Positions 1,772-61,230 of a stretch of 64,000 bases of DNA are shown here, in pieces. The position numbers were made by a program, and so were the translations under genes. Origin of the DNA: a virus; IMG/VR virus record IMGVR_UViG_3300034110_001237, positions 64,001-128,000 of that record. The stretch is one strand, 5' to 3'. The notes beneath the pieces were generated by a model. That model was not told where the DNA came from and did no database searches. It saw nothing but the letters and a program-made list of their open reading frames with translations. Position 1 is the first letter of the stretch. The number at the start of each line of letters is the position of its first letter.

Positions 1772-2419
1772 ATGAGAAAACCAATTACTGTCAACACCAT
1801 TGCAGAACTGAAATCAGTTGCATTTGATTATAATGCTCCTGTTTTCGTTGGCCCTGACATTCTGATTAGTGATTTTATTTCGACGGATGATGAATGTGAT
1901 AAACTCATTGAAAAATTAAAACCTTATCACAAAAGTGTGATTGCTTTCTGTTTTTCTCATGATGGTTTTCGTGTTCATTTTTTGATGATTGATAATTTCG
2001 TCGTCTTAAAAAAATATGCCATTGAAAATGTGACGATTATGAATTTGAAAAAATTTGTTGTCCACTCTATTCGTTTTGACACTGGCACTCATGATTGGAG
2101 CGAAAAGGAATTCTATTCCTATAAGCGTGGTAATAAACCTGTCAGTGTTAGTCGTAACTATGCTTCGTTTATTGCAAAATATGCTCATGTTTATGATAAA
2201 ACCTACGTCAGTGAAATTAGAGTAACTGATAACTCTCAATACTTGATTGATATGACATTTAATCGTAACGGTCGTAAGATTACATTAATGGAGTTGGGAG
2301 CGGAGTATCCAGAGATTGTGTCTGCATTGCGTGGAAAGGTTCGCTCAGTTGAAAACTTGACCAATAAAAGTAAGCTGATTAAATCGTTTTTACCTATTAT
2401 TGATATGATACTTATTTAA
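1772..2419 (+). CDS. hypothetical protein with C-terminal MxxI tag
   Basis: RBS GAGG before ATG 1772; ends IIDMILI. Confidence 0.8.
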   Translation: MRKPITVNTIAELKSVAFDYNAPVFVGPDILISDFISTDDECDKLIEKLKPYHKSVIAFCFSHDGFRVHFLMIDNFVVLKKYAIENVTIMNLKKFVVHSIRFDTGTHDWSEKEFYSYKRGNKPVSVSRNYASFIAKYAHVYDKTYVSEIRVTDNSQYLIDMTFNRNGRKITLMELGAEYPEIVSALRGKVRSVENLTNKSKLIKSFLPIIDMILI

Positions 2420-2422
2420 GGA

Positions 2423-3058
2423 TTGATTATGCTCCATATAGAAACTATTGACCAGTTAAAAGCATGCTTGCTCTCGGATACATCTACTGGGTTATTTATT
2501 ACTCCAGTCCAAACATTTGTAAAATCAGGTGAGCTTATTAAATATGAAAATCGAGCTGAATATTTATATCCGCTTGATGAAGTGACTTTCATTAAATTCC
2601 AAATTAGTCAAAATGTTATTGTTTTCAAAGGCTATTGCATTAAATTTGAAAAACATTACATTTATCATCGCTTAAATAACCTGCCAGCCACTTTGTTTTA
2701 TTTAAGAAATGGAGAACTCAATACAACAAGTTGGTTTGTGGATGGAGCATTGGTTCGAGATCACCCAATGCAACCTGTCATGGTTGAGCATTGTGATGGT
2801 GATTATTGGAAGTTTCAGTATGCAAAAACAGATGACAGTTTCTTTGAGATATCTTATATCCTTTTTGACAAGAAAAAGACCGGGACATTACAAATAGTGG
2901 ACATGTTAGTTCGATATCGTGGAGAAAACCTTAATCTCAAAAGTATCAAAAAACGTTATCCATTTATTGAAGATCTCACGTTTGAAGACTGTTATGACCT
3001 AAGTGTCAACATTTTTACAGATGATCAAATCACTTTAATGAGAATGATTGATATTTGA
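2423..3058 (+). CDS. hypothetical protein with C-terminal MxxI tag
   Basis: 211-aa ORF; ends LMRMIDI. Confidence 0.8.
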   Translation: MIMLHIETIDQLKACLLSDTSTGLFITPVQTFVKSGELIKYENRAEYLYPLDEVTFIKFQISQNVIVFKGYCIKFEKHYIYHRLNNLPATLFYLRNGELNTTSWFVDGALVRDHPMQPVMVEHCDGDYWKFQYAKTDDSFFEISYILFDKKKTGTLQIVDMLVRYRGENLNLKSIKKRYPFIEDLTFEDCYDLSVNIFTDDQITLMRMIDI

Positions 3059-3161
3059 AATCGGCAATATAATGCGGATTATTTATTAATTTTGGCACCT
3101 AATCGGCAATGTAATGCAGATTAAGGTGCTTTTTAGTATCGAAAACTGCATTATATTGCAG
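3059..3161. repeat. three copies of GCAAT(A/G)TAATGC(A/G)G (two direct, one inverted) between convergent genes
   Basis: AATCGGCAATATAATGCGGATTA 3059-3081, AATCGGCAATGTAATGCAGATTA 3101-3123, inverted CTGCATTATATTGCAG 3146-3161. Confidence 0.8.
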
Positions 3162-3163
3162 TC

Positions 3164-3997
3164 TTAACACTCAATCATCTCAATCAACTTTAAATAATCC
3201 ATAAAGGCTACTTTGTTTGGCCCAGTTAAATTGTCATAGAAAATTTTGTTTACAATTTTAAACCAATTTGTATTTTCAAAATCAATACTGGCATAATCCA
3301 AGAAACTTGTGTCCACATCTTCTTTGATCGAGTTCACATGATTAACAAAGCTTACCAGCAATAGTTCGCTTTGCGGTGTTCCAAAATCGTCAACATAATA
3401 ATTACTACTACGACCTTCTAAAACTTTTTTTGTCTCAAAACTCTTTTTACATAGTTTATGTTCTTTATCAAAAAAGTAACACATAGAGTTTGAATAATAG
3501 GTTTTAGCTTTAATTTTATCAATCAGGTCTGGTGTTTTAAAACAGTTCTTTTTGACTAATACATAAATCGAACCACCAAATTCCATGTCTAGATAGAAGT
3601 TTAATGTCATAGATGGGTCATTAAAATGATCGATGTTTAAATGTTTGATAAGTCCTGTTTCAGAAGTTCCACCTTCATAATTAGAACTGTAATGTGTTTG
3701 TCTGCCATTTTCGTCATAATGAACATAAATTGGCATCTCAAATCGACAATCAAATAGTTCATACAAGTTGAAGGTAAATGTGATGGTAATACAATCTTTT
3801 GTTTTTTCATTAGCGTAAAATGAGGTTTCATTTTCTTCCAAGTGAAGATGCTCTTGAATCAATTCCATTGTTATATCTGGATTATTATTGATTGCATTTA
3901 ATTTCTCACACATTAACGCATGCATAATTTGGAAGTGCCTAGGTTTCAGCATTTCCTTCGTAGATAATTCTTTATAATGTGGAAAAAATAACTTCAT
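3164..3997 (-). CDS. hypothetical protein, tandem paralog 1 of 3, C-terminal Mxx-phi tag
   Basis: Shares L.FP.Y.EL, LN(I/L).HFND, LTG...AF.DY with 4017 and 4828; ends LIEMIEC. Confidence 0.85.
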   Translation of the reverse strand: MKLFFPHYKELSTKEMLKPRHFQIMHALMCEKLNAINNNPDITMELIQEHLHLEENETSFYANEKTKDCITITFTFNLYELFDCRFEMPIYVHYDENGRQTHYSSNYEGGTSETGLIKHLNIDHFNDPSMTLNFYLDMEFGGSIYVLVKKNCFKTPDLIDKIKAKTYYSNSMCYFFDKEHKLCKKSFETKKVLEGRSSNYYVDDFGTPQSELLLVSFVNHVNSIKEDVDTSFLDYASIDFENTNWFKIVNKIFYDNLTGPNKVAFMDYLKLIEMIEC

Positions 3998-4016
3998 TTT
4001 AGTGTCCTTTTATTTC

Positions 4017-4811
4017 TTAAATTGTCATCATATCGATCACTTTCATATAATCTAAGAAAGCATTGCGTTTATCACCTGTTAAGGCATTTAAAAACATGTT
4101 ATGGACTTTTTTAAACCATTCTGGTTTATTGAAGTCTATTCTCGCATAATTAACAAACGTTGTGTCAACAGTTTCTTTTTGATTGATTATATGATTTAAA
4201 AACATTAAAAACAAATGTTCTGTTTCCAATTTTTCAAAACCTTCAAATGAATAGCTTGTTTCAGATTCTGTATCCGCATCAATAGTTTTAAATTTTCTAT
4301 ATTTTATTTTATGATGTTTATCAAAAAAATATCTTAATGTTACTGTTTTTGAATGAGACATCGGTGTTTTTATGTAATCATGTTTTACAATTTCATAACC
4401 TTCTTCTAATTCTCTTTTATTTAAATGAAACTCAAGATAAGAATGTCCATCATTAAAATGATCAAGATTTAACATCTGCATTATTTCTGAACGTTTTATT
4501 GAGCCAACATAACGTGACTCCCATGTTGTATACTTGCCGCTTTCATCGAATGAAATAGTTATTGGTATTCTAAATTTAAAATCAAAAAAAACAACATCGA
4601 AATTAATGATTACAAAATCTTTTATTGGATAAAAATGAATTTTATGGCCTACTATTTCTAAGTTCTCGACAATCAAACTTTCGTTAAATTCTAAGTTATT
4701 ATTAATTTCATTTAATTTTTCACATATTAATGTATGCACAATTTTAGAATACCTAGGGTTCAGCGACTCTTCACTGGTTAATTCTTTGTAGTCTGGAAAA
4801 ATTAAATTCAT
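4017..4811 (-). CDS. hypothetical protein, tandem paralog 2 of 3, C-terminal MxxI tag
   Basis: Same motifs; ends VIDMMTI. Confidence 0.85.
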   Translation of the reverse strand: MNLIFPDYKELTSEESLNPRYSKIVHTLICEKLNEINNNLEFNESLIVENLEIVGHKIHFYPIKDFVIINFDVVFFDFKFRIPITISFDESGKYTTWESRYVGSIKRSEIMQMLNLDHFNDGHSYLEFHLNKRELEEGYEIVKHDYIKTPMSHSKTVTLRYFFDKHHKIKYRKFKTIDADTESETSYSFEGFEKLETEHLFLMFLNHIINQKETVDTTFVNYARIDFNKPEWFKKVHNMFLNALTGDKRNAFLDYMKVIDMMTI

Positions 4812-4827
4812 TTTATTTAGTATCCTT

Positions 4828-5631
4828 TTAAATAGTTAACATATCAATCATTTTCATGTAATCTAAGAAAGCAACACGTTTATCACCTGTTAATAATCTA
4901 AAAAATGTTGAATGTGCTTTTTTTGCCCAATCAGCGTCATCAAAATTGAATGTATTATAATTAATCAAATCAATATCAGTATGTTCTTGTTCATTTGTGA
5001 TATGTCGTAAAAATTTAAGGAATAAAATCTCTGATGCTACTTTCTCGAAGCCATCAATCGAATAACTTGATGTTCCAGCACCGTTAACGCTATAGTTCAC
5101 TGTTTCAAAACTTTTGCAGTGAACAGTGTGATTTCTATTGAAGTAATATTTCAATTTTAATCTTTTCTTCGGATAGTCTGGTAACTTAACATCGTTTAAT
5201 TTGATAATTGTATACACTTCATTGAGGTCATCATCTTTTAATGAAAATTCAAGATGTGAATGGGTATCATTGAAATGATTTATATTCAATATATTCATTA
5301 TCTCTGGATATCTTGAATCCCCTTCATAATAGGAGAGCCATTGAGTATATTGACCTATATTGTTAAAATAGGCATTCACTGCCAAACAAAAGGTAAAATC
5401 GAAAAATTTAACATATAAATTGAAGGTTACATATTCTTTTGATTTATAGAAATTTGTTACTGTGTTAATAATTTTAACATTGTCCTTGATGGTTTCTTTG
5501 TTTAATTCATGATTATTATTCATGATAGTAAACTTATCACATAACATTGATTGTAAAATGTCTTTTTGTATGTCCGTTAAATTAGGAGATTTCTCTAATT
5601 CATAGTAGTTTGGAAATTTTAATGACATCAT
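4828..5631 (-). CDS. hypothetical protein, tandem paralog 3 of 3, C-terminal MxxI tag
   Basis: Same motifs; RBS GAGGA; ends MIDMLTI. Confidence 0.85.
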   Translation of the reverse strand: MMSLKFPNYYELEKSPNLTDIQKDILQSMLCDKFTIMNNNHELNKETIKDNVKIINTVTNFYKSKEYVTFNLYVKFFDFTFCLAVNAYFNNIGQYTQWLSYYEGDSRYPEIMNILNINHFNDTHSHLEFSLKDDDLNEVYTIIKLNDVKLPDYPKKRLKLKYYFNRNHTVHCKSFETVNYSVNGAGTSSYSIDGFEKVASEILFLKFLRHITNEQEHTDIDLINYNTFNFDDADWAKKAHSTFFRLLTGDKRVAFLDYMKMIDMLTI

Positions 5632-6205: not shown

Positions 6206-6208
6206 TCA

Positions 6209-8783: not shown

Positions 8784-9419
8784 ATGAGGTGCTGCTTGTT
8801 AAGTCCAACAGAAAGAAATACATTCATTACAACAGCCATTCAATTCGCTTCGAAACATAAGATACCAACGAATAATTATCTTGATAAGTTTCGACTTTCA
8901 TTTCATGATCATAAAAATGAAGAATTCGTGCCTAATCATTATTTTGATTATTCAAGATATGCTTCAATTATCTTGAAAGATTTCGATCTACAACACTCTA
9001 ATTTAAAACTAACAAGCCTATTAAAACCTTATATTAAACACTTGAATATTAACATTGATTTTGATCGACTGCGATTGCATCAATATTATAAAATTGGCTT
9101 AAAACCAGATTACTCATCAATTGAAGATGTGTTATATTTGAGCATTCAACTTGTTAGTATTAATCCTACCAAAGAAGTTCAAGATAGAATAACGATTCGA
9201 TATTATTTTACACCTATCAAAACTTATTTTAAACAATCTATTTTTCCTCGCAGTTTTAATGCTGATGGTTTTGTATTGCATGTTTATTACAAAGATATTG
9301 AATCGTCAGTCATTGCTTTGTTGGAAAGCAATAGAAGAGTCATTGAAAACATCCTTGGATACAGCATTGATCACGTCAATCAAGACACTGTTGACCTTCT
9401 AGATATGTCAATGATTTGA
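8784..9419 (+). CDS. hypothetical protein, paralog of 9514, C-terminal MxxI tag
   Basis: Shares LK.DY.S..DV.Y and VYYKD.ES with 9514; ends LLDMSMI; exact start uncertain. Confidence 0.8.
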   Translation: MRCCLLSPTERNTFITTAIQFASKHKIPTNNYLDKFRLSFHDHKNEEFVPNHYFDYSRYASIILKDFDLQHSNLKLTSLLKPYIKHLNINIDFDRLRLHQYYKIGLKPDYSSIEDVLYLSIQLVSINPTKEVQDRITIRYYFTPIKTYFKQSIFPRSFNADGFVLHVYYKDIESSVIALLESNRRVIENILGYSIDHVNQDTVDLLDMSMI

Positions 9420-9513: not shown

Positions 9514-10143
9514 ATGAAAGCAAATGATAATGACATTGATTATTTCAAATCACTTTTAGCTGTGTTTTCTGCTGAACATAAACTCCACGTTGATAAATAT
9601 TGTTCAAGAAGACTCTTGAGTTTTTACACTCATGATTTCAAGCCGCTTATGTTGCATAAAATGGATATTGATATCGTCGCCCCACTGGTGTTAAAGCCCT
9701 TCAAAGCTTTTAATGTCGAACGACTGGTTAAAAAAGCAAAAATTATCTTTGATGAATTTGTTGATGAACGTCTTGAAGGCTTTATGCTGCCTGATTTTTA
9801 TGATACCTTTGAAACGCATACTATTCAATCTGTTGTATTGAAGAAGGATTATACCAGTCTTCTGGATGTGGCTTATTATCAGGTTGAATTGATTAGTGAT
9901 ACAAAACCTACTCGTATTTTTATCAACCTTCATACTGAGCCTGTTACGCCTTCTTATCGAAGAGACAGTAACAAGCGAGGTTCTATTAAATATATCATTG
10001 CTGATGTTTACTACAAAGATATGGAGTCTATTAAGGAACCTATGTTAGCCTATTATTTAACAGAAGTCAGTGCATTCCTTCAAATTCCAGTTACTGACAT
10101 GGATGAAAACGTCTTGACCTTGATTAAAATGGCTAAAATCTAA
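9514..10143 (+). CDS. hypothetical protein, paralog of 8784, C-terminal MxxI tag
   Basis: TTGACT..CATAAT promoter; ends LIKMAKI. Confidence 0.8.
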   Translation: MKANDNDIDYFKSLLAVFSAEHKLHVDKYCSRRLLSFYTHDFKPLMLHKMDIDIVAPLVLKPFKAFNVERLVKKAKIIFDEFVDERLEGFMLPDFYDTFETHTIQSVVLKKDYTSLLDVAYYQVELISDTKPTRIFINLHTEPVTPSYRRDSNKRGSIKYIIADVYYKDMESIKEPMLAYYLTEVSAFLQIPVTDMDENVLTLIKMAKI

Positions 10144-10222: not shown

Positions 10223-11308
10223 ATGTCTACGTTTAAAGCAACCGTTCTTTCAGTCATTGTTGAGCCACACCCTAACGCTGATGCGATTGAACTGGCTCGC
10301 GTTGGTGATTTCTTTTCGATTATCCAAAAAGGATATTTGAAAACTGGCGATTTGGCTGTCTATATCCCAGAAGGTGCCCTTGTCCCTGAATTCATTCAGG
10401 AAGAAGTGGGGTGCCTCGGTAAATTGGCAGGTTCCAAGAAAAATCGTTTGAAACCGTCTATGCTTCGTGGCGTGCTTAGCCAAGGTCTTTGCTTTAAGGC
10501 CCGTGAAGGTTGGGAAATTGGTGATGATAAAGCCGAAGAATTGGGTATCGTGAAATATGAGGCTCCTATTCCAGCTTCTATGAATGGTGAAATTTCTAAC
10601 GTAGGCATTGAAAACACTTTCCACTTTGACATTGAAAACGTCAAACGCTACCCTGATGTGTTGGTTGAGGGTGAAGAAGTGTCGATGACTGAAAAACTGC
10701 ACGGTACTTTTACTATTGCAGGTAGTGTGTATGGTAAAGCTCCAATTCCACACACTGTTAATGGTCGTTCTTTTGTGAGTAGCAAAGGATTCTTTAACAA
10801 AGGTTTGGTGCTTCGTGATAACGAACAAAATGCTCATAACATTTACATTCGTGTAGCGAAGAAGTTTAATCTTTATGACATTACGGCTATCCTTTCAGAC
10901 CGTTACAAAACTAACGCTTACATTTCGGGTGAAACGTTTGGTGCTGTTCAAGATTTGACTTACGGTCTTGAAGCGGGTGTGTTCGATTTCCGTGTGTTCA
11001 ATGTGTTCCTTGGTAATCGTAGCGAAGCAAGTGGTGTGTTCCCAGTGAACGATGATGTATTAGAAGAAATTCTTGCTGAGTTCGACTTGAAGCGTGTTCC
11101 AGTGCTTTACAAAGGGCCATACAGTAAAGAAGTGATGTTGAAATATACGGATGGATTTGAAACCTATTCAGGCAAAGAAACACACATCCGTGAAGGTTTG
11201 GTTATTGAACCACTTGTTCAGCGTCGTGACCCAACCATTGGGCGTGTTGTCTTGAAAAGTGTTTCAACTGCTTACTTGTCGCGTAAAGGTGGCACTGAGC
11301 TTAACTAA
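10223..11308 (+). CDS. RNA ligase, DRB0094/Rnl5 family (N-terminal OB domain + adenylyltransferase)
   Basis: N-terminal PHPNADAIELARV..GDLAVYIP; motif I TEKLHGT; GETFG; FDFRVFNV; motif IV REGLVI; motif V VLKSVS..YL. Confidence 0.9.
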   Translation: MSTFKATVLSVIVEPHPNADAIELARVGDFFSIIQKGYLKTGDLAVYIPEGALVPEFIQEEVGCLGKLAGSKKNRLKPSMLRGVLSQGLCFKAREGWEIGDDKAEELGIVKYEAPIPASMNGEISNVGIENTFHFDIENVKRYPDVLVEGEEVSMTEKLHGTFTIAGSVYGKAPIPHTVNGRSFVSSKGFFNKGLVLRDNEQNAHNIYIRVAKKFNLYDITAILSDRYKTNAYISGETFGAVQDLTYGLEAGVFDFRVFNVFLGNRSEASGVFPVNDDVLEEILAEFDLKRVPVLYKGPYSKEVMLKYTDGFETYSGKETHIREGLVIEPLVQRRDPTIGRVVLKSVSTAYLSRKGGTELN

Positions 11309-20151: not shown

Positions 20152-20661
20152 ATGAAATTCTTTCTGTTGGTCAGTGTTGGAATACTCAGTGTTTTGTTAG
20201 CTACTGCCAATGAGCCATTCAACAGAAAATTACCTTATACTTTGTCTATTACTGACAGTCAAAAACAATTGAATGTCTCTGTTCCCACATCGGTTGGCAC
20301 CATTTCATACTTTTCCACCAATGAAAGCAACGAAATATTGTTAACTCAATGCTTGGCTGGTATTGACGTTATGAATCAAGAACATATCAAACGATTAACC
20401 TATAAAAATAAACAGATCGATGCAGATATTACAGTTTTTGTCATGTCAAAGAATGATGATCGATTTAAAGCAATGGTGGTTTATTCAAAATTAGATGACA
20501 AACCAATTCAAAATAAATCAAAGGAGAATGTCTGTAATTCTTTAAATGGTATTTATTCAACAAAAAAATGGATTGTAGATCTTTCTTTCAACAAAATCAC
20601 ATCAATTACATTGAATGAGAACAATCAGCTATATTTGAAGATAGCAAAATATACTAACTAA
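20152..20661 (+). CDS. secreted protein, divergent member of 4-gene tandem family
   Basis: Signal peptide; Y.L.I.D, two Cys, V.YSK, terminal W..D...LYL.I strand. Confidence 0.75.
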   Translation: MKFFLLVSVGILSVLLATANEPFNRKLPYTLSITDSQKQLNVSVPTSVGTISYFSTNESNEILLTQCLAGIDVMNQEHIKRLTYKNKQIDADITVFVMSKNDDRFKAMVVYSKLDDKPIQNKSKENVCNSLNGIYSTKKWIVDLSFNKITSITLNENNQLYLKIAKYTN

Positions 20662-20720
20662 CTATAATTGTAAACAGTATTTAACTTAGTATACTACTTA
20701 TACAATTAGGAGGATTTATT

Positions 20721-21224
20721 ATGTTTAAAACTTTTCTTGCTGCTACTCTTTTAATCTCATCAGGTTTTGTATATGCAGAAACTATTGCACATGAACCATA
20801 TCTTATTCAATTCAAAGACAAACAAAATAAAATCAATGACGTTATAAGACTTGATGTTGATGGATTCCCATCTTCTGGCGGTGGGATAATGAAAGAAAAG
20901 CATAAAACAACCGACTGTATTCTTGAACCCTATGATTTTGAAATGTATTCCGCCAGTGATTCATTTTCTGGGATAACTGTTCAAACTTTATCCCAAACTA
21001 GAGAGATTTTTCACATTGTTTTTACATTAACGTATACCGAAGATTTTTCTACTGAAAACGCTATTAAATTGAATGATACTTGTACAATTGCTAATAACGT
21101 ATCAAGTACGATTGATGTCCAATGGGCAGGTGATATTCAGTTTGGAGAGAAGAAAACTATTAAACTGCCTAACAATAATGAACTGTATATGGAAGTGTTG
21201 AAAGATTATCCAGAAATAGATTAA
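20721..21224 (+). CDS. secreted protein, tandem family member 2
   Basis: Signal peptide MFKTFLAATLLISSGFVYA; DVQWAGDI; two Cys. Confidence 0.8.
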   Translation: MFKTFLAATLLISSGFVYAETIAHEPYLIQFKDKQNKINDVIRLDVDGFPSSGGGIMKEKHKTTDCILEPYDFEMYSASDSFSGITVQTLSQTREIFHIVFTLTYTEDFSTENAIKLNDTCTIANNVSSTIDVQWAGDIQFGEKKTIKLPNNNELYMEVLKDYPEID

Positions 21225-21307
21225 TATTTAATGGTTTAAATATATTTTAATATGATTGTATTAATAATTTAATAGCTTATAATAAACATTTAATTAGGAG
21301 TTTTATT

Positions 21308-21838
21308 ATGCTAAAAACCATATTTATAACAAGTTCTTTACTTATATCATCTATGTCTGCATATGCGGATGTTTCGGCTTACAAAATTGACATCAAAGAG
21401 AAACTTGATGACAGTTCATTTTCAATTACAACACCAATGGGCAGCATTGTTCCGTTCCAAAAAGGTGGTAATCCATTAAAAAATGAAAAGTGTTCTATTG
21501 TCTTGAATGATGGCACCACAAAAACAGAATTTGAAACTAACCAAATAAAGTCAGATAAAAATAATACATTAACTGCATCTGTATATCCTGTTTCTATTGA
21601 TGGCGATAAAGTTAAATTTGTATTGGTGTATAGTAAGCAAGATATGATGACTTCACAAGAAGATCAAGACTTCATGCAGATCGGTGAAAACTGTAAATTC
21701 CATAACTCAGTTGTTCATGCAGTATCTACTGATGTCCATTGGGCAGGTGAAGTAACGTTAGGTAAACATACCACTATTCCAGTATCTTCAAATAATTCTA
21801 TTGATGTACTTATTACAGAAATTAAACCAACTAAATAA
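21308..21838 (+). CDS. secreted protein, tandem family member 3
   Basis: Signal peptide; TASVYPVSIDGD; DVHWAGEV. Confidence 0.85.
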   Translation: MLKTIFITSSLLISSMSAYADVSAYKIDIKEKLDDSSFSITTPMGSIVPFQKGGNPLKNEKCSIVLNDGTTKTEFETNQIKSDKNNTLTASVYPVSIDGDKVKFVLVYSKQDMMTSQEDQDFMQIGENCKFHNSVVHAVSTDVHWAGEVTLGKHTTIPVSSNNSIDVLITEIKPTK

Positions 21839-21865
21839 TAACTCAATCCTTTTTGGAGATTTACA

Positions 21866-22399
21866 ATGTTAAAAAAAATGCTGATTGCAAGCTCATTGAC
21901 ACTTATTTCATTATCAGCTCTTGCTGATGTCGTTTCACCACCAATGTATAATATTGAACTTAGAGAAACTGATGGTGTTGTTGATACCGCTGTCGCTTCA
22001 TTTATCACATTTATTGGCAAGGCAATGCCAATTGAAGTCACACAAGAAAACAAAGACAATTCTACCAATTGTTCACTGACTGTTAAAGATGATATAGGTT
22101 TAACTGTATTGAATATTGAACAGAAAAATAAACTAGGTATTACTGCTACTGTTTACCCGATGTCTATTGATGGTGACAATATCAAATTAATGTTAACGTA
22201 TAGCAAACAAGCTGATATTTCGTCTGATAAAGGAACACTCGTTAATGATAACTGTTATTTTTCTAATGCTGTTTCAACCACCACCAATGTTCAATGGTTA
22301 GGGAATGTTGAGATTAATGAAAAAACAAAAATCCCAGTAGCTGGTAAAACAAACTTAATTGTTCTTATCAAAAAAGTTAATACTAATGATAAAGACTAA
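21866..22399 (+). CDS. secreted protein, tandem family member 4
   Basis: Signal peptide; TATVYPMSIDGD; NVQWLGNV. Confidence 0.85.
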   Translation: MLKKMLIASSLTLISLSALADVVSPPMYNIELRETDGVVDTAVASFITFIGKAMPIEVTQENKDNSTNCSLTVKDDIGLTVLNIEQKNKLGITATVYPMSIDGDNIKLMLTYSKQADISSDKGTLVNDNCYFSNAVSTTTNVQWLGNVEINEKTKIPVAGKTNLIVLIKKVNTNDKD

Positions 22400-23039
22400 T
22401 ATCAATCAATCTGTTAAAAATACCTGTCAACAACTAGGCTTTCCACAAGAATTTGTGGACAGCTTAGATATTGAAGCTGTCTTGGCGGCAGAAAAACAAC
22501 AAAAGACTATTTTAGCCATCAATTCAAATTATTCTGGTTCAATTGACATTCACTCTAAATTGACTGATTCTGTTAACAAGCACAGTATTTGTGTAACATT
22601 TGATAATCCAGTTGATTTTTTAGAAAAACGATCATTATTTAATCAAATACACGAAGATTCATTTTGTTTCTTCAATCTTATTTTTGATAACAACTTCAAG
22701 TTTGTGTCTTTTTCATTACCTTATTGTTTCCATGCTGATCATGTGTATAACGAAATTGAGCATGATTTTGTCATATTTTTCAAATTTGATATTGATAATC
22801 AATTGATAGGCGTTGAGACTCGAGAGTTTAGAGAGAGTGAAGAAATTCCTATGATATCGAAATCAAGTCATCTGTTAATGCCTATTGCTGATGAACTTTT
22901 GTTGGTGGAATTCCTACGTTACAAATACAGTCCAGAAATGATAGAACTCATTCCTGAATTTACCATACCAGCGGCTTATGATTTTACATCTGCAGATCTT
23001 GACCGCCGTATTCAATTAGCTAGAATGATCAAGTTTTAA
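22386..23039 (+). CDS. hypothetical protein related to 60189/60718, C-terminal MxxF tag
   Basis: ELIPEF....AYDFTS.D...RIQLARMIKF matches the PE.Y..GVY.F.S..F..R...ANM..I tail of 60189/60718. Confidence 0.8.
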   Translation: MIKTNINQSVKNTCQQLGFPQEFVDSLDIEAVLAAEKQQKTILAINSNYSGSIDIHSKLTDSVNKHSICVTFDNPVDFLEKRSLFNQIHEDSFCFFNLIFDNNFKFVSFSLPYCFHADHVYNEIEHDFVIFFKFDIDNQLIGVETREFRESEEIPMISKSSHLLMPIADELLLVEFLRYKYSPEMIELIPEFTIPAAYDFTSADLDRRIQLARMIKF

Positions 23040-23725: not shown

Positions 23726-23895
23726 AAATTAACCCTCAAATAATCGATTATTTTACTTTATGGATGATAAAAAGTCAATGTTTTATGTTATTTTCATTTT
23801 ATTTCTTTGTTTTTAACTTTTTCATGATTAAAACGTTGCTTTATAGGCTCTATTTTGGTACAATATCGGAAATGAAAACAACGGAGATACACCAC

Positions 23896-25050
23896 ATGTC
23901 AATTTTTCCAACTATTCGCCATATTGACGACATCTTGCCAGCTTTGGTTGGTAAAGATTACATCGGTATCAACAAGCAATCTAACGGTTCGACTGTTATT
24001 TGCTATAACATCAGCAATGCTGAAGGTTTTGCTACGTCTTTTGAAAAAGAGTGTCGTGGTATTACTTTCAACCGCGATGGTAAAATTGTCTCCCGTCCTT
24101 TGCATAAGTTCTTTAACTTGGCAGAGCGTGAAGAAGTCTTGCCACAAAACTTGAATTGGGATGATGTTGTTGCTGTCTTCGATAAAATGGATGGTTCTAT
24201 GATTACGGGTGGTGTATTCCACGGTGAAGTCTTCGTAAAATCTAAAAAATCCTTTGAATCGGATGTGGCTGTCTCTGCTTTGGCTTATGTGAAAGCAAAC
24301 CAGAAATATTACGATTTCATCAAGCATTGTGCTAATGTAGATTTGACACCAGTTTTTGAATATACGTCGCCAAATAACCGGATCGTATTGCGTTACGATG
24401 AAGAAAAAATGACTGTGTTGCATGTTCGTCATAACATCACTGGTTTATACCATACTCCAGATGAAGTGGCAGCATTGGCGAAGTCTTTTGACATTCCAGT
24501 GAACGCACCATTGTTTGGTAAAGGCTTTGATTTGAAAGCATTGTTGGAATCTTTGAATACTGTTGAAGGAATCGAAGGTTATGTCATTCAGTTTAAAAAC
24601 GGCGATATGGTGAAAGTCAAAACTCGCTGGTATGTAAACTTGCACCATGCTGTTACTTTCGTGCGTATCCGTGATATTGCTCGTTTGGTATTGTCGGAAA
24701 AAATTGACGACTACATTGCATTTGTTGCTTTGAATGCACCAGAAGCCGATTTGACTCAAATCCATCATATCAACGACACTATTAAAGGTGAAATTGAAGG
24801 AATCAAGAAAGAAGTTGATACAATTTTGGCTCAGCATCAAGGTGCAGATTTCAAAACGTTGGCAACTACTTACTTGGGGCATCCATACTTCTCTTTCATC
24901 ATGACCACTGCTCGTGGTAAAGAAGTGGATTATTTGGACTACTACGAACGTAACCGTTTGAAAGAAGTTTGGTCTTTGGAGCAAGTGGATTTGGGTGACT
25001 TCACTGGCACCGACGAATCAGACGAAGAAGTTCAAGTAGACGAAGAGTGA
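23896..25050 (+). CDS. RNA ligase, T4 Rnl1 (RnlA) family
   Basis: ECRGITF..DG.IVSRP.HKFFN; motif I DKMDGS; FEYTSP.NRIV..Y; motif IV EGYVI; motif V VKVKT.WY; RBS GGAG before ATG 23896. Confidence 0.9.
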   Translation: MSIFPTIRHIDDILPALVGKDYIGINKQSNGSTVICYNISNAEGFATSFEKECRGITFNRDGKIVSRPLHKFFNLAEREEVLPQNLNWDDVVAVFDKMDGSMITGGVFHGEVFVKSKKSFESDVAVSALAYVKANQKYYDFIKHCANVDLTPVFEYTSPNNRIVLRYDEEKMTVLHVRHNITGLYHTPDEVAALAKSFDIPVNAPLFGKGFDLKALLESLNTVEGIEGYVIQFKNGDMVKVKTRWYVNLHHAVTFVRIRDIARLVLSEKIDDYIAFVALNAPEADLTQIHHINDTIKGEIEGIKKEVDTILAQHQGADFKTLATTYLGHPYFSFIMTTARGKEVDYLDYYERNRLKEVWSLEQVDLGDFTGTDESDEEVQVDEE

Positions 25051-27131: not shown

Positions 27132-27692
27132 ATGATTAAAAATATAGACTTGTCTTTGGATTTAAAGGAATTTTTAATATATGTTGAGTCATTGAATATT
27201 GGTATGGAGCCTATTCATTACTATTATTTAATTGACGTTGATTACAAAAAAAGACTATGTTCAGTCACTGAAAATGGTGAAACAAAATTTTTGATAGGTA
27301 TTGATAAAATACAGTATCTACGAGAAATTTTAAAACCACTAATGAATGATAAAAACGTCAATCAACTTATTTATATACTTTCAATAGCTCAATTTTACAG
27401 CTATTTATTTTATGATGATTATTTCAATGGTTTAGTTGATTTCTCTTATGTGGATAAATATGCATCTGATTATTTACAGTTTTCAGTCGGTGTTTTAAAT
27501 TTTAATATTTTTGACAATAATATACAAGTTTATAATTGTGGTGACGATTATATATTTGAGTCATTTACTATTGAAGATACATATAATTTTTTCTTAAATT
27601 ATATTCAACAAAAAATAATTGACAATTTACACGCTGATAGGGAACAGATAAGTAACAAAAATATTTTGCTTCTTGAAATGCTGAAAATTTAA
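27132..27692 (+). CDS. hypothetical protein with C-terminal MxxI tag
   Basis: ATG 27132; ends LLEMLKI. Confidence 0.75.
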   Translation: MIKNIDLSLDLKEFLIYVESLNIGMEPIHYYYLIDVDYKKRLCSVTENGETKFLIGIDKIQYLREILKPLMNDKNVNQLIYILSIAQFYSYLFYDDYFNGLVDFSYVDKYASDYLQFSVGVLNFNIFDNNIQVYNCGDDYIFESFTIEDTYNFFLNYIQQKIIDNLHADREQISNKNILLLEMLKI

Positions 27693-28742: not shown

Positions 28743-29048
28743 ATGACTACTCATTATCTTTCCATCTACAATCGTGAAACCACTACGTTGAACTATTCCG
28801 GGTTCAAAGACCCTACTGCAAGCTTGCTTAAAGTACAAGGCGAACTTTCCCCTGCGGTCATTGCAGCAGCTAAATTTATTGTAACTGATGGTGTTCTTGT
28901 TAAAATTAACGAAGGTGGCCGTTACCCTAAATGTGGTGTTGGTGAAACACTGACTGATGAACAGATTCATCACCTGCAATCCAACTATGAAAAAACCACC
29001 ACTCAATATTTGAACACATCCGATAAGATTGAGGCTATCTTGGCATGA
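28743..29048 (+). CDS. hypothetical protein
   Basis: RBS AGGTG, 101 aa. Confidence 0.75.
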   Translation: MTTHYLSIYNRETTTLNYSGFKDPTASLLKVQGELSPAVIAAAKFIVTDGVLVKINEGGRYPKCGVGETLTDEQIHHLQSNYEKTTTQYLNTSDKIEAILA

Positions 29049-29476
29049 ATACAAAACTCATGAAAGAAGAAGTTCAACTCTATAAGCCGAAGTATCGAAA
29101 TAGAACTCATGCTCGCATGGACTTTTCTGATTGGCAAAAAGAACTCAATCGTAAAATCCGTCAACAAATGCCACCAGAACTTTGCTTTCGTGTGGCTGTT
29201 CGTGAACACTTCTTGGATCGCCTAATTGACCGAGAAGCTGATCCTCGACACATCAAGAAGTTGATTGAAGATACGATTCAGAAGAAAATGTGCGAAATTC
29301 TCTTTTTTGGTGCATTAAATAAAGATTTTCCACGCATGGTTTTTACGGATACCATTCACCATGTTATGTCAACTTGGTCAAATCATGACCGTTGCATTGT
29401 ATTACGTTCTTATTTCTTGAACAGTGATCGTCTGGTGGGTCAGAATCCTGAGTTTACATTAAATCCCCATCAATAA
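29045..29476 (+). CDS. hypothetical protein, possible RelE/BECR-like RNase fold
   Basis: ATGA overlap; EHFLDRL..R motif and terminal strand ending LRSYF. Confidence 0.55.
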   Translation: MNTKLMKEEVQLYKPKYRNRTHARMDFSDWQKELNRKIRQQMPPELCFRVAVREHFLDRLIDREADPRHIKKLIEDTIQKKMCEILFFGALNKDFPRMVFTDTIHHVMSTWSNHDRCIVLRSYFLNSDRLVGQNPEFTLNPHQ

Positions 29477-31622: not shown

Positions 31623-31706
31623 GCGGAAGTGATGAAATGGTAGACGTTCTGGTCTTAGAAGCCAGTGCCGAGAGGCGTGTGGGTTCGAGTCCCACCTTCC
31701 GCACCA
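31623..31706 (+). tRNA. tRNA-Leu(TAG)
   Basis: Acceptor GCGGAAG/CTTCCGC-A-CCA, anticodon arm CTGGT-CTTAGAA-GCCAG, long variable arm, GTGGG-TTCGAGT-CCCAC. Confidence 0.95.
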
Positions 31707-34719: not shown

Positions 34720-35406
34720 ATGTCTATTATGACTTCGCTTGATACAGCATCATTGTTTTCTGTCGCAAGGCTTAAAACTCGGTTAAATCGAGAAAACCTT
34801 TCAGAATTCATTCCATCTTCGTTCGTTTTTCAATCAGTCTCCATCATTGTCATGGTTCTTGCTTTTATCTATGGTATGAGCATTGATAGTCGTAAAATCA
34901 TAGTATTCAGTGCATTCAATGGGATTGCTTCCATTCTATTGTTCGGTTTGGTGTTATGGATGACTAAAATTAAAACGTTGCCTGATCGCTATTACAGTTG
35001 GTCTACTGCCATCAATTATGTGGGAGCAGTGTTTTCCATTCCTTATCTGATTTTTATTGACTATGAAGCTGTATTGGCATTTTCGACGATCTTCTTTTTC
35101 ATCAACATTTTCAACCTTTGTGTTCTTCTTCATATTTTGAATTTTCGGTCTAATCATCACCACAGTTGGAATGCTCTTCGTCAAGTTACCGAATCGAAGA
35201 AAGGCTTCAAATTCAAGCTGACAATGGGGCTACGCCTTCATATGATTATGCCTATTGGTTTGATCAGTATTCATTTTGAAAGTATCACTATCAATCATGT
35301 CGAACATGATTTGTACTATCTAACTAAACATTTCAAAGAATATGGACTAGACTTGTCTTCGGTTACTGATGATGATTTAAAACTTTGGGAAATGATTAAC
35401 TATTGA
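34720..35406 (+). CDS. 4-TM membrane protein, tandem paralog 1 of 3, C-terminal MxxY tag
   Basis: PDRYYSW...NY shared with 36171; ends LWEMINY. Confidence 0.85.
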   Translation: MSIMTSLDTASLFSVARLKTRLNRENLSEFIPSSFVFQSVSIIVMVLAFIYGMSIDSRKIIVFSAFNGIASILLFGLVLWMTKIKTLPDRYYSWSTAINYVGAVFSIPYLIFIDYEAVLAFSTIFFFINIFNLCVLLHILNFRSNHHHSWNALRQVTESKKGFKFKLTMGLRLHMIMPIGLISIHFESITINHVEHDLYYLTKHFKEYGLDLSSVTDDDLKLWEMINY

Positions 35407-35423
35407 TTAAAATCAGGTGGTTT

Positions 35424-36092
35424 ATGACTAATATTTTATTTTTTACACAACGTATGCTGGTCGCTTACACCTTTGGTTTTATGGGCATTCTGTGCTCTAT
35501 TCTTATCGCGGCTTTACAGATAACAAAGATATCTGCTAGCGGTGATGTGCTATGGCTTTTATTGGCGTGTGGTTTTGCAGTGGCTGTATTTGTGGTTTAT
35601 CTGGATAGCCGTCCAGTTCTTGACAATATTAATTACTATTCAAAATATGCCATGTTTAATTATGTGTTTAGTTTATATGTTGTGGCTCATTCAGTTATCA
35701 TGATTGGATCAAGTCAATTGTTTATACTGTTACCTGCCATGTTGCTAAGTGTTTTCAATATTTTCTTGTTTTCTAAAATCCATCATGGTCTTTCTGAACA
35801 CTTGATTATTCCAAGACTTCAACAATTATATAAGTTATTGCCAGAAATGCATAATGTTAATATTGATTTTGACTATACTTTTTTACGAAAAACAGATCTT
35901 TTGATTTTTGAAAGAAGATTCTTTAAAATCATGACAACAATGGGTGAATTGCTTTTTGACGGCCATTATCTTTACTTGAACGGCTATAAGTATGAAGTCG
36001 ATGCTTTTGTGGATGGATTTAAAGCTTGCTCTATCGACATTAACAGTTCAACACCAGAAGATGCTATGGTTATGCAAATGTATTGTGTATAA
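35424..36092 (+). CDS. 4-TM membrane protein, tandem paralog 2 of 3, C-terminal MxxV tag
   Basis: YYS....FNY; FN.FLF; ends VMQMYCV; RBS AGGTGG before ATG 35424. Confidence 0.8.
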   Translation: MTNILFFTQRMLVAYTFGFMGILCSILIAALQITKISASGDVLWLLLACGFAVAVFVVYLDSRPVLDNINYYSKYAMFNYVFSLYVVAHSVIMIGSSQLFILLPAMLLSVFNIFLFSKIHHGLSEHLIIPRLQQLYKLLPEMHNVNIDFDYTFLRKTDLLIFERRFFKIMTTMGELLFDGHYLYLNGYKYEVDAFVDGFKACSIDINSSTPEDAMVMQMYCV

Positions 36093-36182
36093 TTGTAGCT
36101 TAATAAGTCATTTTTAGCTGTCTTATTTCTTTTCAATAGTGTATAATCAACATATATTTGAATCAACGCCATGAGGTGTTTT

Positions 36183-36875
36183 ATGAAAGCATTACAGTAT
36201 TTGAAACAAATCACACCCTTGTTTATTATGCGGCAATACAACTTGTCCGCATTTTTGGTTTTGTTATGTTCATGTTTTGGCATGTATCTCACCATGTCAC
36301 ATATGGAACTTGGTGGTAATAAGTTCTTTATCATTGTTGGAGGTGTAACCTTAGTGACACTGGGGTTCGCTTTTGTCCTTCATGCGATGAATTACTTTGC
36401 TATGCCGCCTGACCGCTTCTATTCAGATTGGTCTTGGATGAATTATATTTTGGCTGGTGTTGTGTTGTTGTCAACTCTCACCATTCCAGAAGAAAGCCTT
36501 GTTAACTATTTGATTATTTTTTCTATTGCTATTCTCAACTTGTGTCTGTTTATGTCAAGCATGCAATTTAGAAGCACATATTCAACTGAAATCACTAAAC
36601 TGCGAAAATTGTTTCCTGATGAAAAACAGTTCATGTTTGATTTTGACTTTGATTTTTCACGAGATTTTAAGGGCGTTGTCAATAAGAAAAAAGTAAACTT
36701 TGGTATTTGTCTCTTAACAAATTCAGGTAAAATTGTTTTGGCGGGTGATAATTTTTATTTTGATGACAAACCTTATTCCGCTGATAAACTGGCAAAGGAT
36801 CTTAAAGAATGTGAATTGAGTTTTAACAAGGCCAGTAAAGATGATTTGAAAGTTGTTGAAATGGCAACCTATTAA
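36183..36875 (+). CDS. 4-TM membrane protein, tandem paralog 3 of 3, C-terminal MxxY tag
   Basis: PDRFYSDW..MNY; ends VVEMATY; RBS GAGG before ATG 36183. Confidence 0.85.
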   Translation: MKALQYLKQITPLFIMRQYNLSAFLVLLCSCFGMYLTMSHMELGGNKFFIIVGGVTLVTLGFAFVLHAMNYFAMPPDRFYSDWSWMNYILAGVVLLSTLTIPEESLVNYLIIFSIAILNLCLFMSSMQFRSTYSTEITKLRKLFPDEKQFMFDFDFDFSRDFKGVVNKKKVNFGICLLTNSGKIVLAGDNFYFDDKPYSADKLAKDLKECELSFNKASKDDLKVVEMATY

Positions 36876-44102: not shown

Positions 44103-44176
44103 GGCTGCTTGGCAGAATGGTCATGTACCGGATTGCAAATCCGAGTATGGGGGTTCGATTCCCTCAGCAGCCTCCA
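44103..44176 (+). tRNA. tRNA-Cys(GCA)
   Basis: Acceptor GGCTGCT/AGCAGCC-T-CCA, anticodon loop TTGCAAA, GGGGG-TTCGATT-CCCTC. Confidence 0.93.
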
Positions 44177-57921: not shown

Positions 57922-58046
57922 AAAATCATTAATGACAGCTTTTAATAAAAAGACCTTTCTGGTCTTTTTTACTTTAAATATAACATTATTTGACAATGAT
58001 TTGACTTGCATTATAATATGAGTATATAACAGTTATTGTGGCTATC

Positions 58047-58607: not shown

Positions 58608-58713
58608 TTTAAATTATAATTTTAAAGAACCTTTCAAGGTTCTTTTTTAATACTTGATATTTTTCTAAGTGTTTGGTAAAATAGAGCCATATTTGATAAA
58701 GAGAGTATTGCCA

Positions 58714-59052
58714 ATGACTACGACCATCTTGACTGTTGAACAACAACGTAATCGTTTTGTAAAGCACCACAAAAACGCAGCACCTGTTGAATTTGACTAC
58801 ACCTTTGAAGGTAATGGTTTTAAAGACGTTATGCTTAATGGTATCTTTTTGGGATGGTTGTTGGCTGTTGAAGCACAGACCAAAGACGAAGTGAATCTCT
58901 ATTACAGCCGAACCTATGGTTGGAAACTTGAATCTGCTGATAGTGGTTTCACTGTCCCTTCGCCAGAATTCATGCGGCGGTCGGATGAAGATAAAGTCAT
59001 TGAATGGGCTAAAGAACATGGTTTTTTGGTGATTAAAGTTGATGATGAATAA
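58714..59052 (+). CDS. hypothetical protein
   Basis: RBS GAGAG before ATG 58714. Confidence 0.75.
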   Translation: MTTTILTVEQQRNRFVKHHKNAAPVEFDYTFEGNGFKDVMLNGIFLGWLLAVEAQTKDEVNLYYSRTYGWKLESADSGFTVPSPEFMRRSDEDKVIEWAKEHGFLVIKVDDE

Positions 59053-59094
59053 TCTTTGACTGCATAAAAAAGCCCAGCTAATGCTGGGTTTTCT

Positions 59095-59604
59095 TTATTT
59101 CTTATTCCATTTTTCTTGACAGACAAATCTAATGCGTTCTATTTCATCCAAGAACCATTGATAATCAGTAGCAAGATAGATTTTGTATTTACCATTCTTG
59201 CCATACCAGTTGAAATGGATAAATGGTAATGTGGACGCTACCAACATATTAAGTAAATCTCTGTTTTGACGCAGCTTACATCGCAATCCTTCCAAAATAT
59301 CTTCGACTTCTTCACTGGTCAACTCAGTAGTTCTTGGATTTAACTTATCCAGTTCATCCCCTTTTTGTTTGGCTTCGTAACCATACAGTGATCTCAACTC
59401 ATCATGTTGCTGACCTGACCAAAGCCATGCCCAGTAGCCTTCCATACTTTCGAAGTGGCCGTGTTTGGGATGATTGAATGGATAGTGTGCGAAGTTGCTT
59501 AATGCTTTTCCAATTTTAGTTTTTCCTTTGGACGCCGCATTGATAAATAGAATGCCATCGTTGTCTGGCGAAATGTCTTCTTCTTGCAGAATGGTAATTG
59601 TCAT
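59095..59604 (-). CDS. NADAR-like protein (divergent)
   Basis: LSNFA..PF.....G.F.S.EGYW, EAK..G, KLRQN..L...L.AST follow the NADAR motif order. Confidence 0.65.
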   Translation of the reverse strand: MTITILQEEDISPDNDGILFINAASKGKTKIGKALSNFAHYPFNHPKHGHFESMEGYWAWLWSGQQHDELRSLYGYEAKQKGDELDKLNPRTTELTSEEVEDILEGLRCKLRQNRDLLNMLVASTLPFIHFNWYGKNGKYKIYLATDYQWFLDEIERIRFVCQEKWNKK

Positions 59605-59677
59605 TGTTAATAACTCCTAAGATCTCTATTAACAATAACATGTTTTTTAATCTTTTCAATTTATGGTTAAGAAGCTT

Positions 59678-60124
59678 TTAGTCCTTTTTGGATTCCTTGG
59701 TCAGTCTTGCTTCAAAATCTTTGTAGTTTTTGATAGCCACTCGCATTTCAGATTCGAGCTTTTCTTTCTTTTGTTCATCAACAATTCTTTGATCTAAAGT
59801 GACTTTTGGTTTTTCATTGAGATCTTGAATGCAATCGGTAATCCAAGGAATAAAAACACCATGTCGAATCGCTTTCACAGCTTTATAAAGAAACAATAGT
59901 GTCATGATACCCACACCAATGCAGCCGATGGTAAACATCACTGTCGAAATAAGGAAATACAATGGAAAGAAAAAGTCAGATTCCGCCACGTAGCTGATAC
60001 GGATAATGAACTGCAGCATAAACCCAAGCACCATCATTGCCATTGATAGACAGAAAACGGAACTCTTCACAGAGTTATCTACCAACATCCAGCTTGGTAT
60101 TTTTGATTTTAGGTCTATGCTCAT
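59678..60124 (-). CDS. 2-TM membrane protein
   Basis: RBS GAGGA; two TM then charged tail. Confidence 0.75.
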   Translation of the reverse strand: MSIDLKSKIPSWMLVDNSVKSSVFCLSMAMMVLGFMLQFIIRISYVAESDFFFPLYFLISTVMFTIGCIGVGIMTLLFLYKAVKAIRHGVFIPWITDCIQDLNEKPKVTLDQRIVDEQKKEKLESEMRVAIKNYKDFEARLTKESKKD

Positions 60125-60188
60125 TCTTTAAATCCTCATTAATTACTGCAATTGTATCAAACGTAAGCAGATATTGCAATACATTATA

Positions 60189-60716
60189 TTATATCGTTAA
60201 CATATTAGCGACTGTCAGCCTTTGATTAAATTCGACACTTGTAAAATTGTAGACACCGACTGTATACATTTCTGGCAACAGCTCTTTAAGTTCCGGCCCT
60301 TTGTAGTGTTTGGACATCATGAGTAATTTCAATAACTTCTCATCTAAACCCACATTAAAGTTACAGATGACTTTTTCATTGATATTACGTTGATAACGAT
60401 AAACAATATCATTCAGTTCAAGATGGTTTTCACCCTTGACATCTTCATAGAAAATCCAGAGCATCGAGCCATTGGCTTTGTTGTAAAAGGAGAATCGTAA
60501 TCGTTTGAACTTACCATCATCAAAAATGGCATCGCAGTCTTCTAGCATCCCCGGAAAGGAAATGCCTAATGTTATAGTATCAAAGTTAAGTGTTGTCTTA
60601 TAGATTAAGCCACAAGTTCCTTTGATAGCGGCGTCTTCGCACAGCACTTCGAAATAGCTGGGAAGCCCCCATTTATTTTTATCTTTGAAGTCAGTTAGGA
60701 CAAATTTTTCATACAT
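60189..60716 (-). CDS. hypothetical protein, paralog of 60718, C-terminal MxxI tag
   Basis: F.GM...C.A.F...G.FK; PEMYTVGVYNF; ends VANMLTI. Confidence 0.85.
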   Translation of the reverse strand: MYEKFVLTDFKDKNKWGLPSYFEVLCEDAAIKGTCGLIYKTTLNFDTITLGISFPGMLEDCDAIFDDGKFKRLRFSFYNKANGSMLWIFYEDVKGENHLELNDIVYRYQRNINEKVICNFNVGLDEKLLKLLMMSKHYKGPELKELLPEMYTVGVYNFTSVEFNQRLTVANMLTI

Positions 60717-60717
60717 A

Positions 60718-61230
60718 TTAAATTAACACCATATTAGCGAGATCTATTCTTTGTTTGAAATTATCACTATTGAAATCATACACTCCTTTCTGATAAAATT
60801 CTGGGAATGTTTCTTCTACGAATTCTTGCTGACCAGTCTTGCTACTCATCAATATTTTGATCAGATCTTCGTCAAAAATAGCTCCAAATCTATATTTTTG
60901 GTGATCTTCAATATGTCCACCAGATGGGTTGTATCCAAAGGCTGTTCTAACAAAATTCAAATCCTTATCAACTGTAATGCTTAGTATTTTATTATATATT
61001 CTGCTATTAAAAGCAAAATGAATGTTTTTAAAACGACCTTCATCTGTAAAGTATGCTCGACACGATTCTTCCATACCATCAAATTCCATGCCCGTTTTGA
61101 CATTAGAAAGATCGAGACTTTTATTGTTTGCATAGCGATGAATTTCTTTTTCAACAATAGCTTCTAAAAGATCGATGAAACCTGTTTTATCAGCTTTAAA
61201 AAAATTCGAAATTGTTGGATATTCTAACAT
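60718..61230 (-). CDS. hypothetical protein, paralog of 60189, C-terminal MxxI tag
   Basis: Same motifs; ends LANMVLI. Confidence 0.85.
   Translation of the reverse strand: MLEYPTISNFFKADKTGFIDLLEAIVEKEIHRYANNKSLDLSNVKTGMEFDGMEESCRAYFTDEGRFKNIHFAFNSRIYNKILSITVDKDLNFVRTAFGYNPSGGHIEDHQKYRFGAIFDEDLIKILMSSKTGQQEFVEETFPEFYQKGVYDFNSDNFKQRIDLANMVLI

Follow-up and report, generated by a model that had tools for sequence, protein, structure and literature searches.

In T4-family phages, gp33 and gp55 carry C-terminal tails that bind gp45, the sliding clamp. The Dot/Icm (type IVB) effectors of Legionella and Coxiella, which amount to hundreds of dissimilar orphans per genome, bear their signal in the last 20–35 residues, which include acidic residues and, near −3/−4, a hydrophobic one; this signal is degenerate and disordered, and its register is not fixed. 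In poxviruses, ankyrin proteins combine a variable body with a C-terminal PRANC/F-box-like domain. The clamp-binding tail of T4 gp43 reads ...EKASLDFLFG (PMC6212786), and phage G, a jumbo phage, possesses about 35 zinc-ribbon copies as a lineage-specific expansion (PMC7824862). Here, we analyse a stretch of 64,000 nucleotides (the window) that corresponds to bases 64,001–128,000 of the IMG/VR virus record IMGVR_UViG_3300034110_001237 (161,697 bp, 33.8% GC; hereafter G000), and in which fourteen orphan proteins, referred to as carriers, end in a common C-terminal tail. This tail is real, striking and undescribed, no description of it having been found in the literature. The comparisons reported below show that its sharing is largely explained by the descent of a folded domain from a common ancestor, and not by the grafting of a free peptide on unrelated proteins.

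The fourteen C-terminal heptads listed by the original prediction, which had been made from the sequence without database searches, were all reproduced exactly on translation (Table 1). The positions given there were the lowest coordinate of each gene, and genes on the + strand have their tail at the opposite end of the open reading frame (ORF); likely ATG starts are 2429 and 36171 for the carriers listed as 2423 and 36183, respectively. The pattern [LIVM][LIVMAW].M..[IFYCVL]$ matches 14 of the 95 non-overlapping ORFs of at least 90 amino acids (aa) in the window. The same 7-mer pattern is found at 29 of 44,189 internal positions of the record's proteins, so that 0.06 matches are expected at 95 termini (binomial P ~5e-29), and when the last 30 residues are shuffled, a control named by the prediction itself, the pattern matches 0.07 times on average and at most twice, versus the 14 observed. 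Met is found at −4 in 54 ORFs of the whole record, and in 1 to 9 at any other distance between −1 and −15. As announced, the carriers are proteins of 170 to 277 aa, soluble or with about four transmembrane segments, encoded on both strands, and the tail is confined to orphans, being absent from every Pfam-recognisable protein.

The comparison set consisted of G000 and four related IMG/VR records (64–193 kb, taken whole), that is about 750 kb; all five records are partial, with a CheckV completeness of 22–59%. Endings of the M-x-x-hydrophobic type were counted in 46/210, 53/230, 38/199, 55/248 and 11/87 of their ORFs of at least 100 aa, and the tail is carried by about one protein in five of the element. 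The tailed ORFs of the five records form about 24 genuine BLAST clusters, the largest of which keep the tail in 39/42, 28/32, 18/18, 15/15, 12/12 and 10/11 of their members, the small remainder being either truncated copies or proteins with Ile in place of Met. Met at −4 had been described as invariant, which holds for the 14 window carriers but not for the wider family, where Ile, Leu or Val can take its place. Among 188 distinct tail DNAs, ATT/ATA/ATC, TTA/TTG/CTT/CTG, GAA/GAT/GAC and all three stop codons are used in ordinary proportions. Since synonymous and stop codons vary at the tail, selection acts on the peptide and not on a DNA or RNA motif. Decay forms were noticed as well, namely, a paralogue at G000 137079-137738 ending in ...YEMMIT, with a polar last residue, and a 65-aa remnant at G000 157566-157763, in which only the C-terminal module of its family is left.

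The tag had been delimited to seven residues, which proved too narrow. Family-weighted conservation spans −13 to −1, with Asp at −11, hydrophobic residues at −9, −7 and −6, Asp or Glu at −5, Met at −4, Leu, Ile, Ala or Ser at −3, and Ile, Tyr, Val or Cys at −1. In every family, the last 13 residues count among the windows of highest conservation (for example, rank 1/248, 3/283 and 3/206), and in nearly all families the 40 residues that precede them show higher conservation than the body. In the family of the carriers at 22386, 60189 and 60718 (hereafter the 22386 family), conservation extends over about 58 residues, and it is only there, in the last 58 residues, that invariant or near-invariant positions are found, according to the pattern ...D-E..L...LPE..IPSAYDF.S..F..RL....M..x.

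Two carriers from BLAST-unrelated families were modelled with AlphaFold2, the 4017-4811 protein (predicted local distance difference test score, pLDDT, 86.7; predicted template-modelling score, pTM, 0.80) and the 22386-23039 protein (pLDDT 76.8, pTM 0.74). The former is predicted to fold into three N-terminal helices, nine strands (residues 51-187) and helices 195-210, 232-245 and 249-263, the last of which is the tail. Both models share the same order of elements: three helices, three to four strands, a short helix, five strands and three C-terminal helices. In both, the tail is the last of these three helices and runs to the chain end with a pLDDT of ~70-90; it is thus predicted as a fairly confident terminal helix, and not as a loose appendage. 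Residues 193-264 of the 4017-4811 model align alone to small helical domains, and we therefore consider the tag to be the end of a folded C-terminal helical module. A complex prediction with two copies of the 4017-4811 protein returned a score of 0.00 ('no answer'), which has no bearing either way on self-association.

With regard to structural neighbours, both models rank 4fr9_A, 3u1w_A and 4hbr_A high (Z 6.1, 5.6 and 5.2 for one model; 4.1, 4.7 and 4.3 for the other), the alignments to 4fr9_A covering 117 residues with a root-mean-square deviation of 4.1 (Z 6.1) and 95 residues with one of 4.5 (Z 4.1). These BLIP-like/PepSY-like tandem alpha+beta proteins resemble the carriers in having helices packed on an antiparallel sheet, and two small inhibitor or immunity proteins, Ugi-2 (8aim_G) and TriTu (7zhm_D), are also among the best neighbours of both models' bodies. 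However, Z values of only 4-6 fall within the range of common arrangements, and none of these proteins has the C-terminal three-helix module. Neither model gave a convincing relative when aligned with VIA-align to the PDB, a Foldseek match at E<=0.001 in the PDB or BFVD, or a shape match in ESM Atlas with a template-modelling (TM) score >0.46.

The original prediction also held that the tails sit on about seven groups of unrelated bodies. Seven BLAST groups do exist in the window, but sensitive profiles and models link some of the bodies. Profiles were compared with each other after removal of the last 15 residues, and also at full length. With the trimmed profiles, the c6 and c18 bodies are clearly linked (E ~1e-11), as are those of c0 and c1 over ~100 columns (E ~3-8e-4) and those of c0 and c9 (E 8e-4, and 9e-5 over 155 columns at full length). 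Body-level values of E 2e-12 for c6 and c18, and of E 2.5e-4 over 102 columns for c0 and c1, were also obtained. Full-length profiles connect the c3 membrane family to c20, the family with two transmembrane segments of G000 13132, over 92 columns up to the C-terminus. Furthermore, profiles reveal body-level links of the 22386 family with the LLLLDMQAI and 43457 families, and a deep hidden Markov model (HMM) of the 22386 family, built with 112 database relatives, matches about 20 LLLLDMQAI members over their bodies and, more weakly, some untagged proteins of 150-180 aa.

Two side observations concern these families. The LLLLDMQAI family is present in 7-13 tandem copies (G000 149161-154627 and relatives) that have in common an M-[KT]-T-[IL]-Y-[ED] motif at the N-terminus, reminiscent of the T4 capsid-targeting sequence; as a second shared signal, the M-[KT]-T-[IL]-Y motif was ruled out, being specific to this family. 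In addition, window positions 20152-22399 are occupied by a tandem row of four paralogues that lack the tail and whose N-termini look like signal peptides or those of lipoproteins. The last of the row (21866-22399), located just upstream of the 22386 carrier, and a relative in record G001 match the body part of the 22386-family HMM weakly (E ~0.06-0.1).

A profile search of 1.84 billion representatives with the 22386 family retrieved 137 relative clusters (50% identity) at E <= 1e-3, and nearly all the alignments reach the last residues of the protein. Among the 129 full-length relatives, Met at −4 is combined with a hydrophobic end in 89 and with a polar end in 12, and 19 (15%) carry Ile, Leu or Val at −4, with the same chain-end residue in ~93%. 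Since Met is exchanged for Ile, Leu or Val with the chain end kept, position −4 behaves as a core position of the terminal helix. An N-terminal hydrophobic segment is present in 8 of the 129. Some relatives are longer (320-384 aa) owing to an extra N-terminal region, which in many of them holds a second match to the profile, and one relative sits on a JGI contig of 1,859,102 bp.

The three membrane carriers of the window (34720-36875) have a clearly different N-terminal part, with about four transmembrane segments, before a soluble region of ~90 residues ending in the tail. In membrane proteins, orientation follows the positive-inside rule. As the N-terminus of these carriers is basic and the number of their transmembrane segments even, their C-terminal module is probably cytoplasmic.

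The explanation we favour, with belief and doubt in about equal parts, is that the carriers represent one or very few lineage-specific, hyper-expanded and fast-diverging superfamilies, in which variable bodies are provided with a constant C-terminal module as a common handle. The soluble members would consist of an alpha/beta body that varies, built of three N-terminal helices and two beta-meanders, and a conserved C-terminal helical module of ~50-70 residues, the end of whose last helix would be the tag, D-x-phi-x-phi-phi-[DE]-M-phi-x-phi-COOH, and in some members transmembrane segments would precede the module in place of the N-terminal part of the body. The module may be a folded interaction domain plugging many bodies into one common cytoplasmic partner or platform, with Met and the fixed chain end belonging both to its core and to its binding surface, and the bodies may be diversifying binders or inhibitors that act in host takeover or counter-defence. 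That the module is homologous and folded is supported by evidence, and its docking role is what we infer. We hold the notion of a constant handle plus a variable binder with moderate confidence, because the module is the best conserved part and includes polar residues, its end is fixed, the tandem bodies are hypervariable, and the module is probably cytoplasmic.

In this respect, the carriers resemble the multigene families of large viruses, such as those mentioned above, which also comprise dozens of tandem, fast-diverging paralogues with a small terminal domain as the most conserved part and follow the same logic of a constant handle and a variable binder. They differ from them by the lack of any sequence or fold relation, and by a much larger scale, about 20% of the genes being concerned.

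Several observations weigh against this explanation. Five of the seven window groups are connected to the others at the sequence level only through the last 10-40 residues. Models are available for two families only, and their likeness is one of element order and of shared PDB neighbours, whose Z values of 4-6 lie in the noise range of the tool. A purely structural helix would not usually show a nearly invariant Met and a residue-exact chain end, which are consistent with a recognised terminus. A search for fusions between the module and known domains yielded none, the relatives it retrieved being proteins of ~110-230 aa without Pfam domains, which is weak evidence. Finally, no partner was found in the five partial records, and the function as a handle is one that we only infer.

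If a common handle it is, the module would offer an entry into the biology of almost wholly unannotated giant phage-like replicons, and a pull-down with the 60-residue domain could reveal the hub that organises ~20% of their proteins. On the conservative reading too, the carriers would be among the largest lineage-specific protein expansions in a virus-like element, with a fold that has no clear relative. Defining the family, which is absent from Pfam and PHROGs, would annotate hundreds of metagenomic orphan genes.

We propose more tentatively that the module is an address or docking domain linking about one fifth of the proteome of a clade of phage-like elements of 0.8-1.9 Mb to a single hub, for which a packaging or translocation ATPase, a clamp or a compartment would be candidates; the membrane-anchored members could then be fixed docking sites or cargo. 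Such a domain, if it exists, would mean that a bacterial virus-like replicon has a sorting system at the scale of its proteome that has not been described so far. A dedicated sorting system had already been inferred in the original prediction, and the tail does exceed chance by far, but neither a receptor nor a sorting machine was found in the ~750 kb of the five partial records. Four carriers are immediately preceded, in an operon-like arrangement, by a 547-aa protein with a Walker A motif (G000 773-2416). In ESM Atlas, the neighbours of this protein are HerA/FtsK/TrwB-like, with feature scores <=0.85, where values below 0.9 provide a lead only, and TM scores by query of ~0.4-0.5. Searches of Pfam, PHROGs, PDB sequences and genome HMMs returned nothing in favour of a HerA or TrwB nature, and we consider this P-loop protein a candidate hub as a lead only.

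Searches for other hubs in the same records detected no family-B DNA polymerase, no match to the TrwB_AAD_bind and DUF87 HMMs and no type IV secretion genes. The sliding clamp PF02916 has no match in G000; the one match in the four relatives (18 bits) lies inside an LLLLDMQAI carrier, is reproduced by 1 of 20 members of that family (E 0.007), and was rejected as spurious. As the records are partial, the missing clamp, polymerase and TrwB/HerA count for little. The carriers themselves gave no functional clue in Pfam, PHROGs, PADLOC, the PDB, BFVD or ESM Atlas: 0 of 10 matched Pfam at the curated cut-off, and 44 searched against Pfam yielded just two marginal single matches; none matched PHROGs (0/7), PADLOC (0/44) or, in a sequence profile search, the PDB.

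The confident prediction of the tail as a helix in both models, with hydrophobic residues at −9, −7, −6, −4, −3 and −1 covering most of the helix surface, could also mean that the tail is a purely structural cap. According to this explanation, the main rival of a handle and in our opinion a rather unlikely one, the terminal helix would close the hydrophobic core of the module with no common partner involved, and its sharing would result from gene-family expansion; the presence of Ile, Leu or Val instead of Met in 15% of the wider relatives, and of a polar last residue in ~10%, would be in keeping with it. However, the module is better conserved than the body, polar residues included (P-E, Y-D-F, S and R in the 22386 family), and such conservation is more typical of a functional surface. 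Moreover, C-terminal length drifts in ordinary families, but the great majority of the relatives here end on the same residue, and the module is retained where transmembrane segments replace the N-terminal part.

The reading given in the original prediction, namely a register-fixed linear C-terminal signal on unrelated proteins, read by one machine, appears unlikely to us, whether the reader would be a T4-type sliding clamp, a packaging or translocation ATPase, a secretion coupling protein or a compartment shell. The tail is predicted within a folded helical module, without a flexible linker, conservation reaches far upstream of the heptad, and several carrier bodies are homologous, which together argue against such a signal, although its distance from the free carboxylate is strictly fixed and it occurs on soluble and membrane proteins alike, the latter having the module on a different N-terminal part. 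The 547-aa P-loop protein upstream of four carriers might serve as a reader, again as a lead only; on the other side, the five partial records hold no supported HMM match to a gp45-type clamp, a family-B polymerase, TrwB or HerA.

The nearest systems known include the gp45-binding tails. The acid-hydrophobic heptad resembles a clamp-binding tail, which provides a lead: in both cases, a short acidic and hydrophobic peptide is found at the extreme C-terminus, and with gp45 one hub binds several different proteins. The heptad of the RB69 polymerase tail, which we take to be Leu, Phe, Asp, Met, Phe, Asp, Phe, has Met at −4 and the same residue classes as the carriers. The carrier heptad is only loosely like the T4 LDFLF motif, and is too short for similarity to show membership. 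Furthermore, the gp45-binding tails are borne on flexible linkers by a few replication or transcription proteins, whereas in the carriers, more than 200 orphans that include membrane proteins, the tail terminates a module predicted to be folded. The Dot/Icm signal shares with the tail its C-terminal location on many orphan proteins and its acidic and hydrophobic residues; in contrast, the carriers have a near-invariant Met at exactly −4 (54 ORFs), a fixed end and a predicted helix, and the gene content of the element is huge-phage-like. Unlike the cargo-loading peptides of encapsulins or those of microcompartments, the carrier tail is not attached by a linker in either model, and no shell-protein family occurs among 25 of the 29 Pfam families listed for the non-carriers, where no search was aimed at shell genes.

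ClpXP, Tsp and FtsH are examples of bacterial proteases that recognise non-polar C-terminal tails, and a non-polar C-terminus at a fixed register could likewise act as a degron, by which a host or element protease would give the repertoire a short, co-ordinated half-life. This is highly improbable, given that the tail is unlike the known LAA-type or MuA-type motifs and is predicted to be helical and packed, and that the same 25 Pfam families include no protease. Lastly, chance, an annotation artefact or a nucleotide-level signal (a 3' DNA or RNA motif, or an internal start codon) deserves virtually no credence, as the binomial P given above speaks against chance, and the nucleotide-level signal, in favour of which there is the invariant ATG codon and nothing else, is refuted by the ordinary codon and stop-codon variation of the tail DNAs.

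With regard to the genomic setting, the DNA of G000 is also contained in a 773,483-bp ENA metagenome contig, in a 222,568-bp JGI contig and in a contig of a GenBank metagenome-assembled genome (GCA_043530215.1). To the left of G000, an AcrB-like RND pump and an outer-membrane factor, with ~61% identity to gammaproteobacterial genes, are followed by further carriers, and carriers extend beyond G000 on the right as well. The replicon may be a megabase-scale phage-like element. IMG/VR labels G000 as a 'provirus' with a completeness of ~50%, and we regard this label as doubtful. A megablast search of the window against phage and plasmid collections and a tblastn search of one carrier against phages gave no match. 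Pfam matches were obtained for only ~20 of the 149 non-carrier proteins, which include a class I (Trp/Tyr-type) tRNA synthetase, a ribosome recycling factor, Sir2, two RNA ligases, a RegB-like RNase, a dCMP deaminase, an NAD kinase and an HNH endonuclease, and this non-carrier gene content resembles that of huge phages. The synthetase and the recycling factor are encoded in other parts of the record than the scattered tRNAs of Table 1.

Table 1. Positions of the carrier genes and of other features of the element (window coordinates unless indicated otherwise)
Feature	Coordinates	Strand	Length (aa)	C-terminal heptad	Remarks
Carrier, soluble orphan, cluster c12	1772..2419	+	215	IIDMILI	Orthologues in 4 related records keep the ending; no Pfam match
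Carrier, cluster c13	2429..3058	+	209	LMRMIDI	5/5 orthologues tagged; no Pfam match
Carrier, cluster c2	3164..3997	-	277	LIEMIEC	Tandem paralogue 1 of 3; 18/18 cluster members tagged
Carrier, cluster c2	4017..4811	-	264	VIDMMTI	Modelled with AlphaFold2
Carrier, cluster c2	4828..5631	-	267	MIDMLTI	
Carrier, cluster c10	8784..9419	+	211	LLDMSMI	
Carrier, cluster c10	9514..10143	+	209	LIKMAKI	
Carrier, cluster c1	22386..23039	+	217	LARMIKF	Modelled with AlphaFold2
Carrier, cluster c17	27132..27692	+	186	LLEMLKI	
Membrane carrier, cluster c3	34720..35406	+	228	LWEMINY	~4 transmembrane segments, then ~90-aa soluble tail region; 15/15 members tagged
Membrane carrier, cluster c3	35424..36092	+	222	VMQMYCV	
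Membrane carrier, cluster c3	36171..36875	+	234	VVEMATY	
Carrier, cluster c1 (22386 family)	60189..60716	-	175	VANMLTI	
Carrier, cluster c1 (22386 family)	60718..61230	-	170	LANMVLI	
RNA ligase, Rnl2-like	10223-11308				With PHA02142 OB domain
RNA ligase, Rnl1-like	23764-25050				Differs from the Rnl2-like ligase
RegB-like endoribonuclease	29045-29476				
tRNA-Leu(TAG)	31623-31706				Among orphan genes
tRNA-Cys(GCA)	44103-44176				Among orphan genes
tRNA-Arg(CCG)	Piece L003 6459-6535				Among orphan genes
Cation-diffusion-facilitator gene (zinc transporter type)	61402-62400				Complete; adjoins two carriers

Two minor observations concern single genes of the element and its relatives. The Rnl1-like ligase has its best match in the Ralstonia jumbo phage RsoM2USA (44%). 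On a relative, an ENA contig of 102 kb, a 527-aa TnpB/Cas12f-like gene (L008 3451-5034) is inserted amid otherwise syntenic genes.

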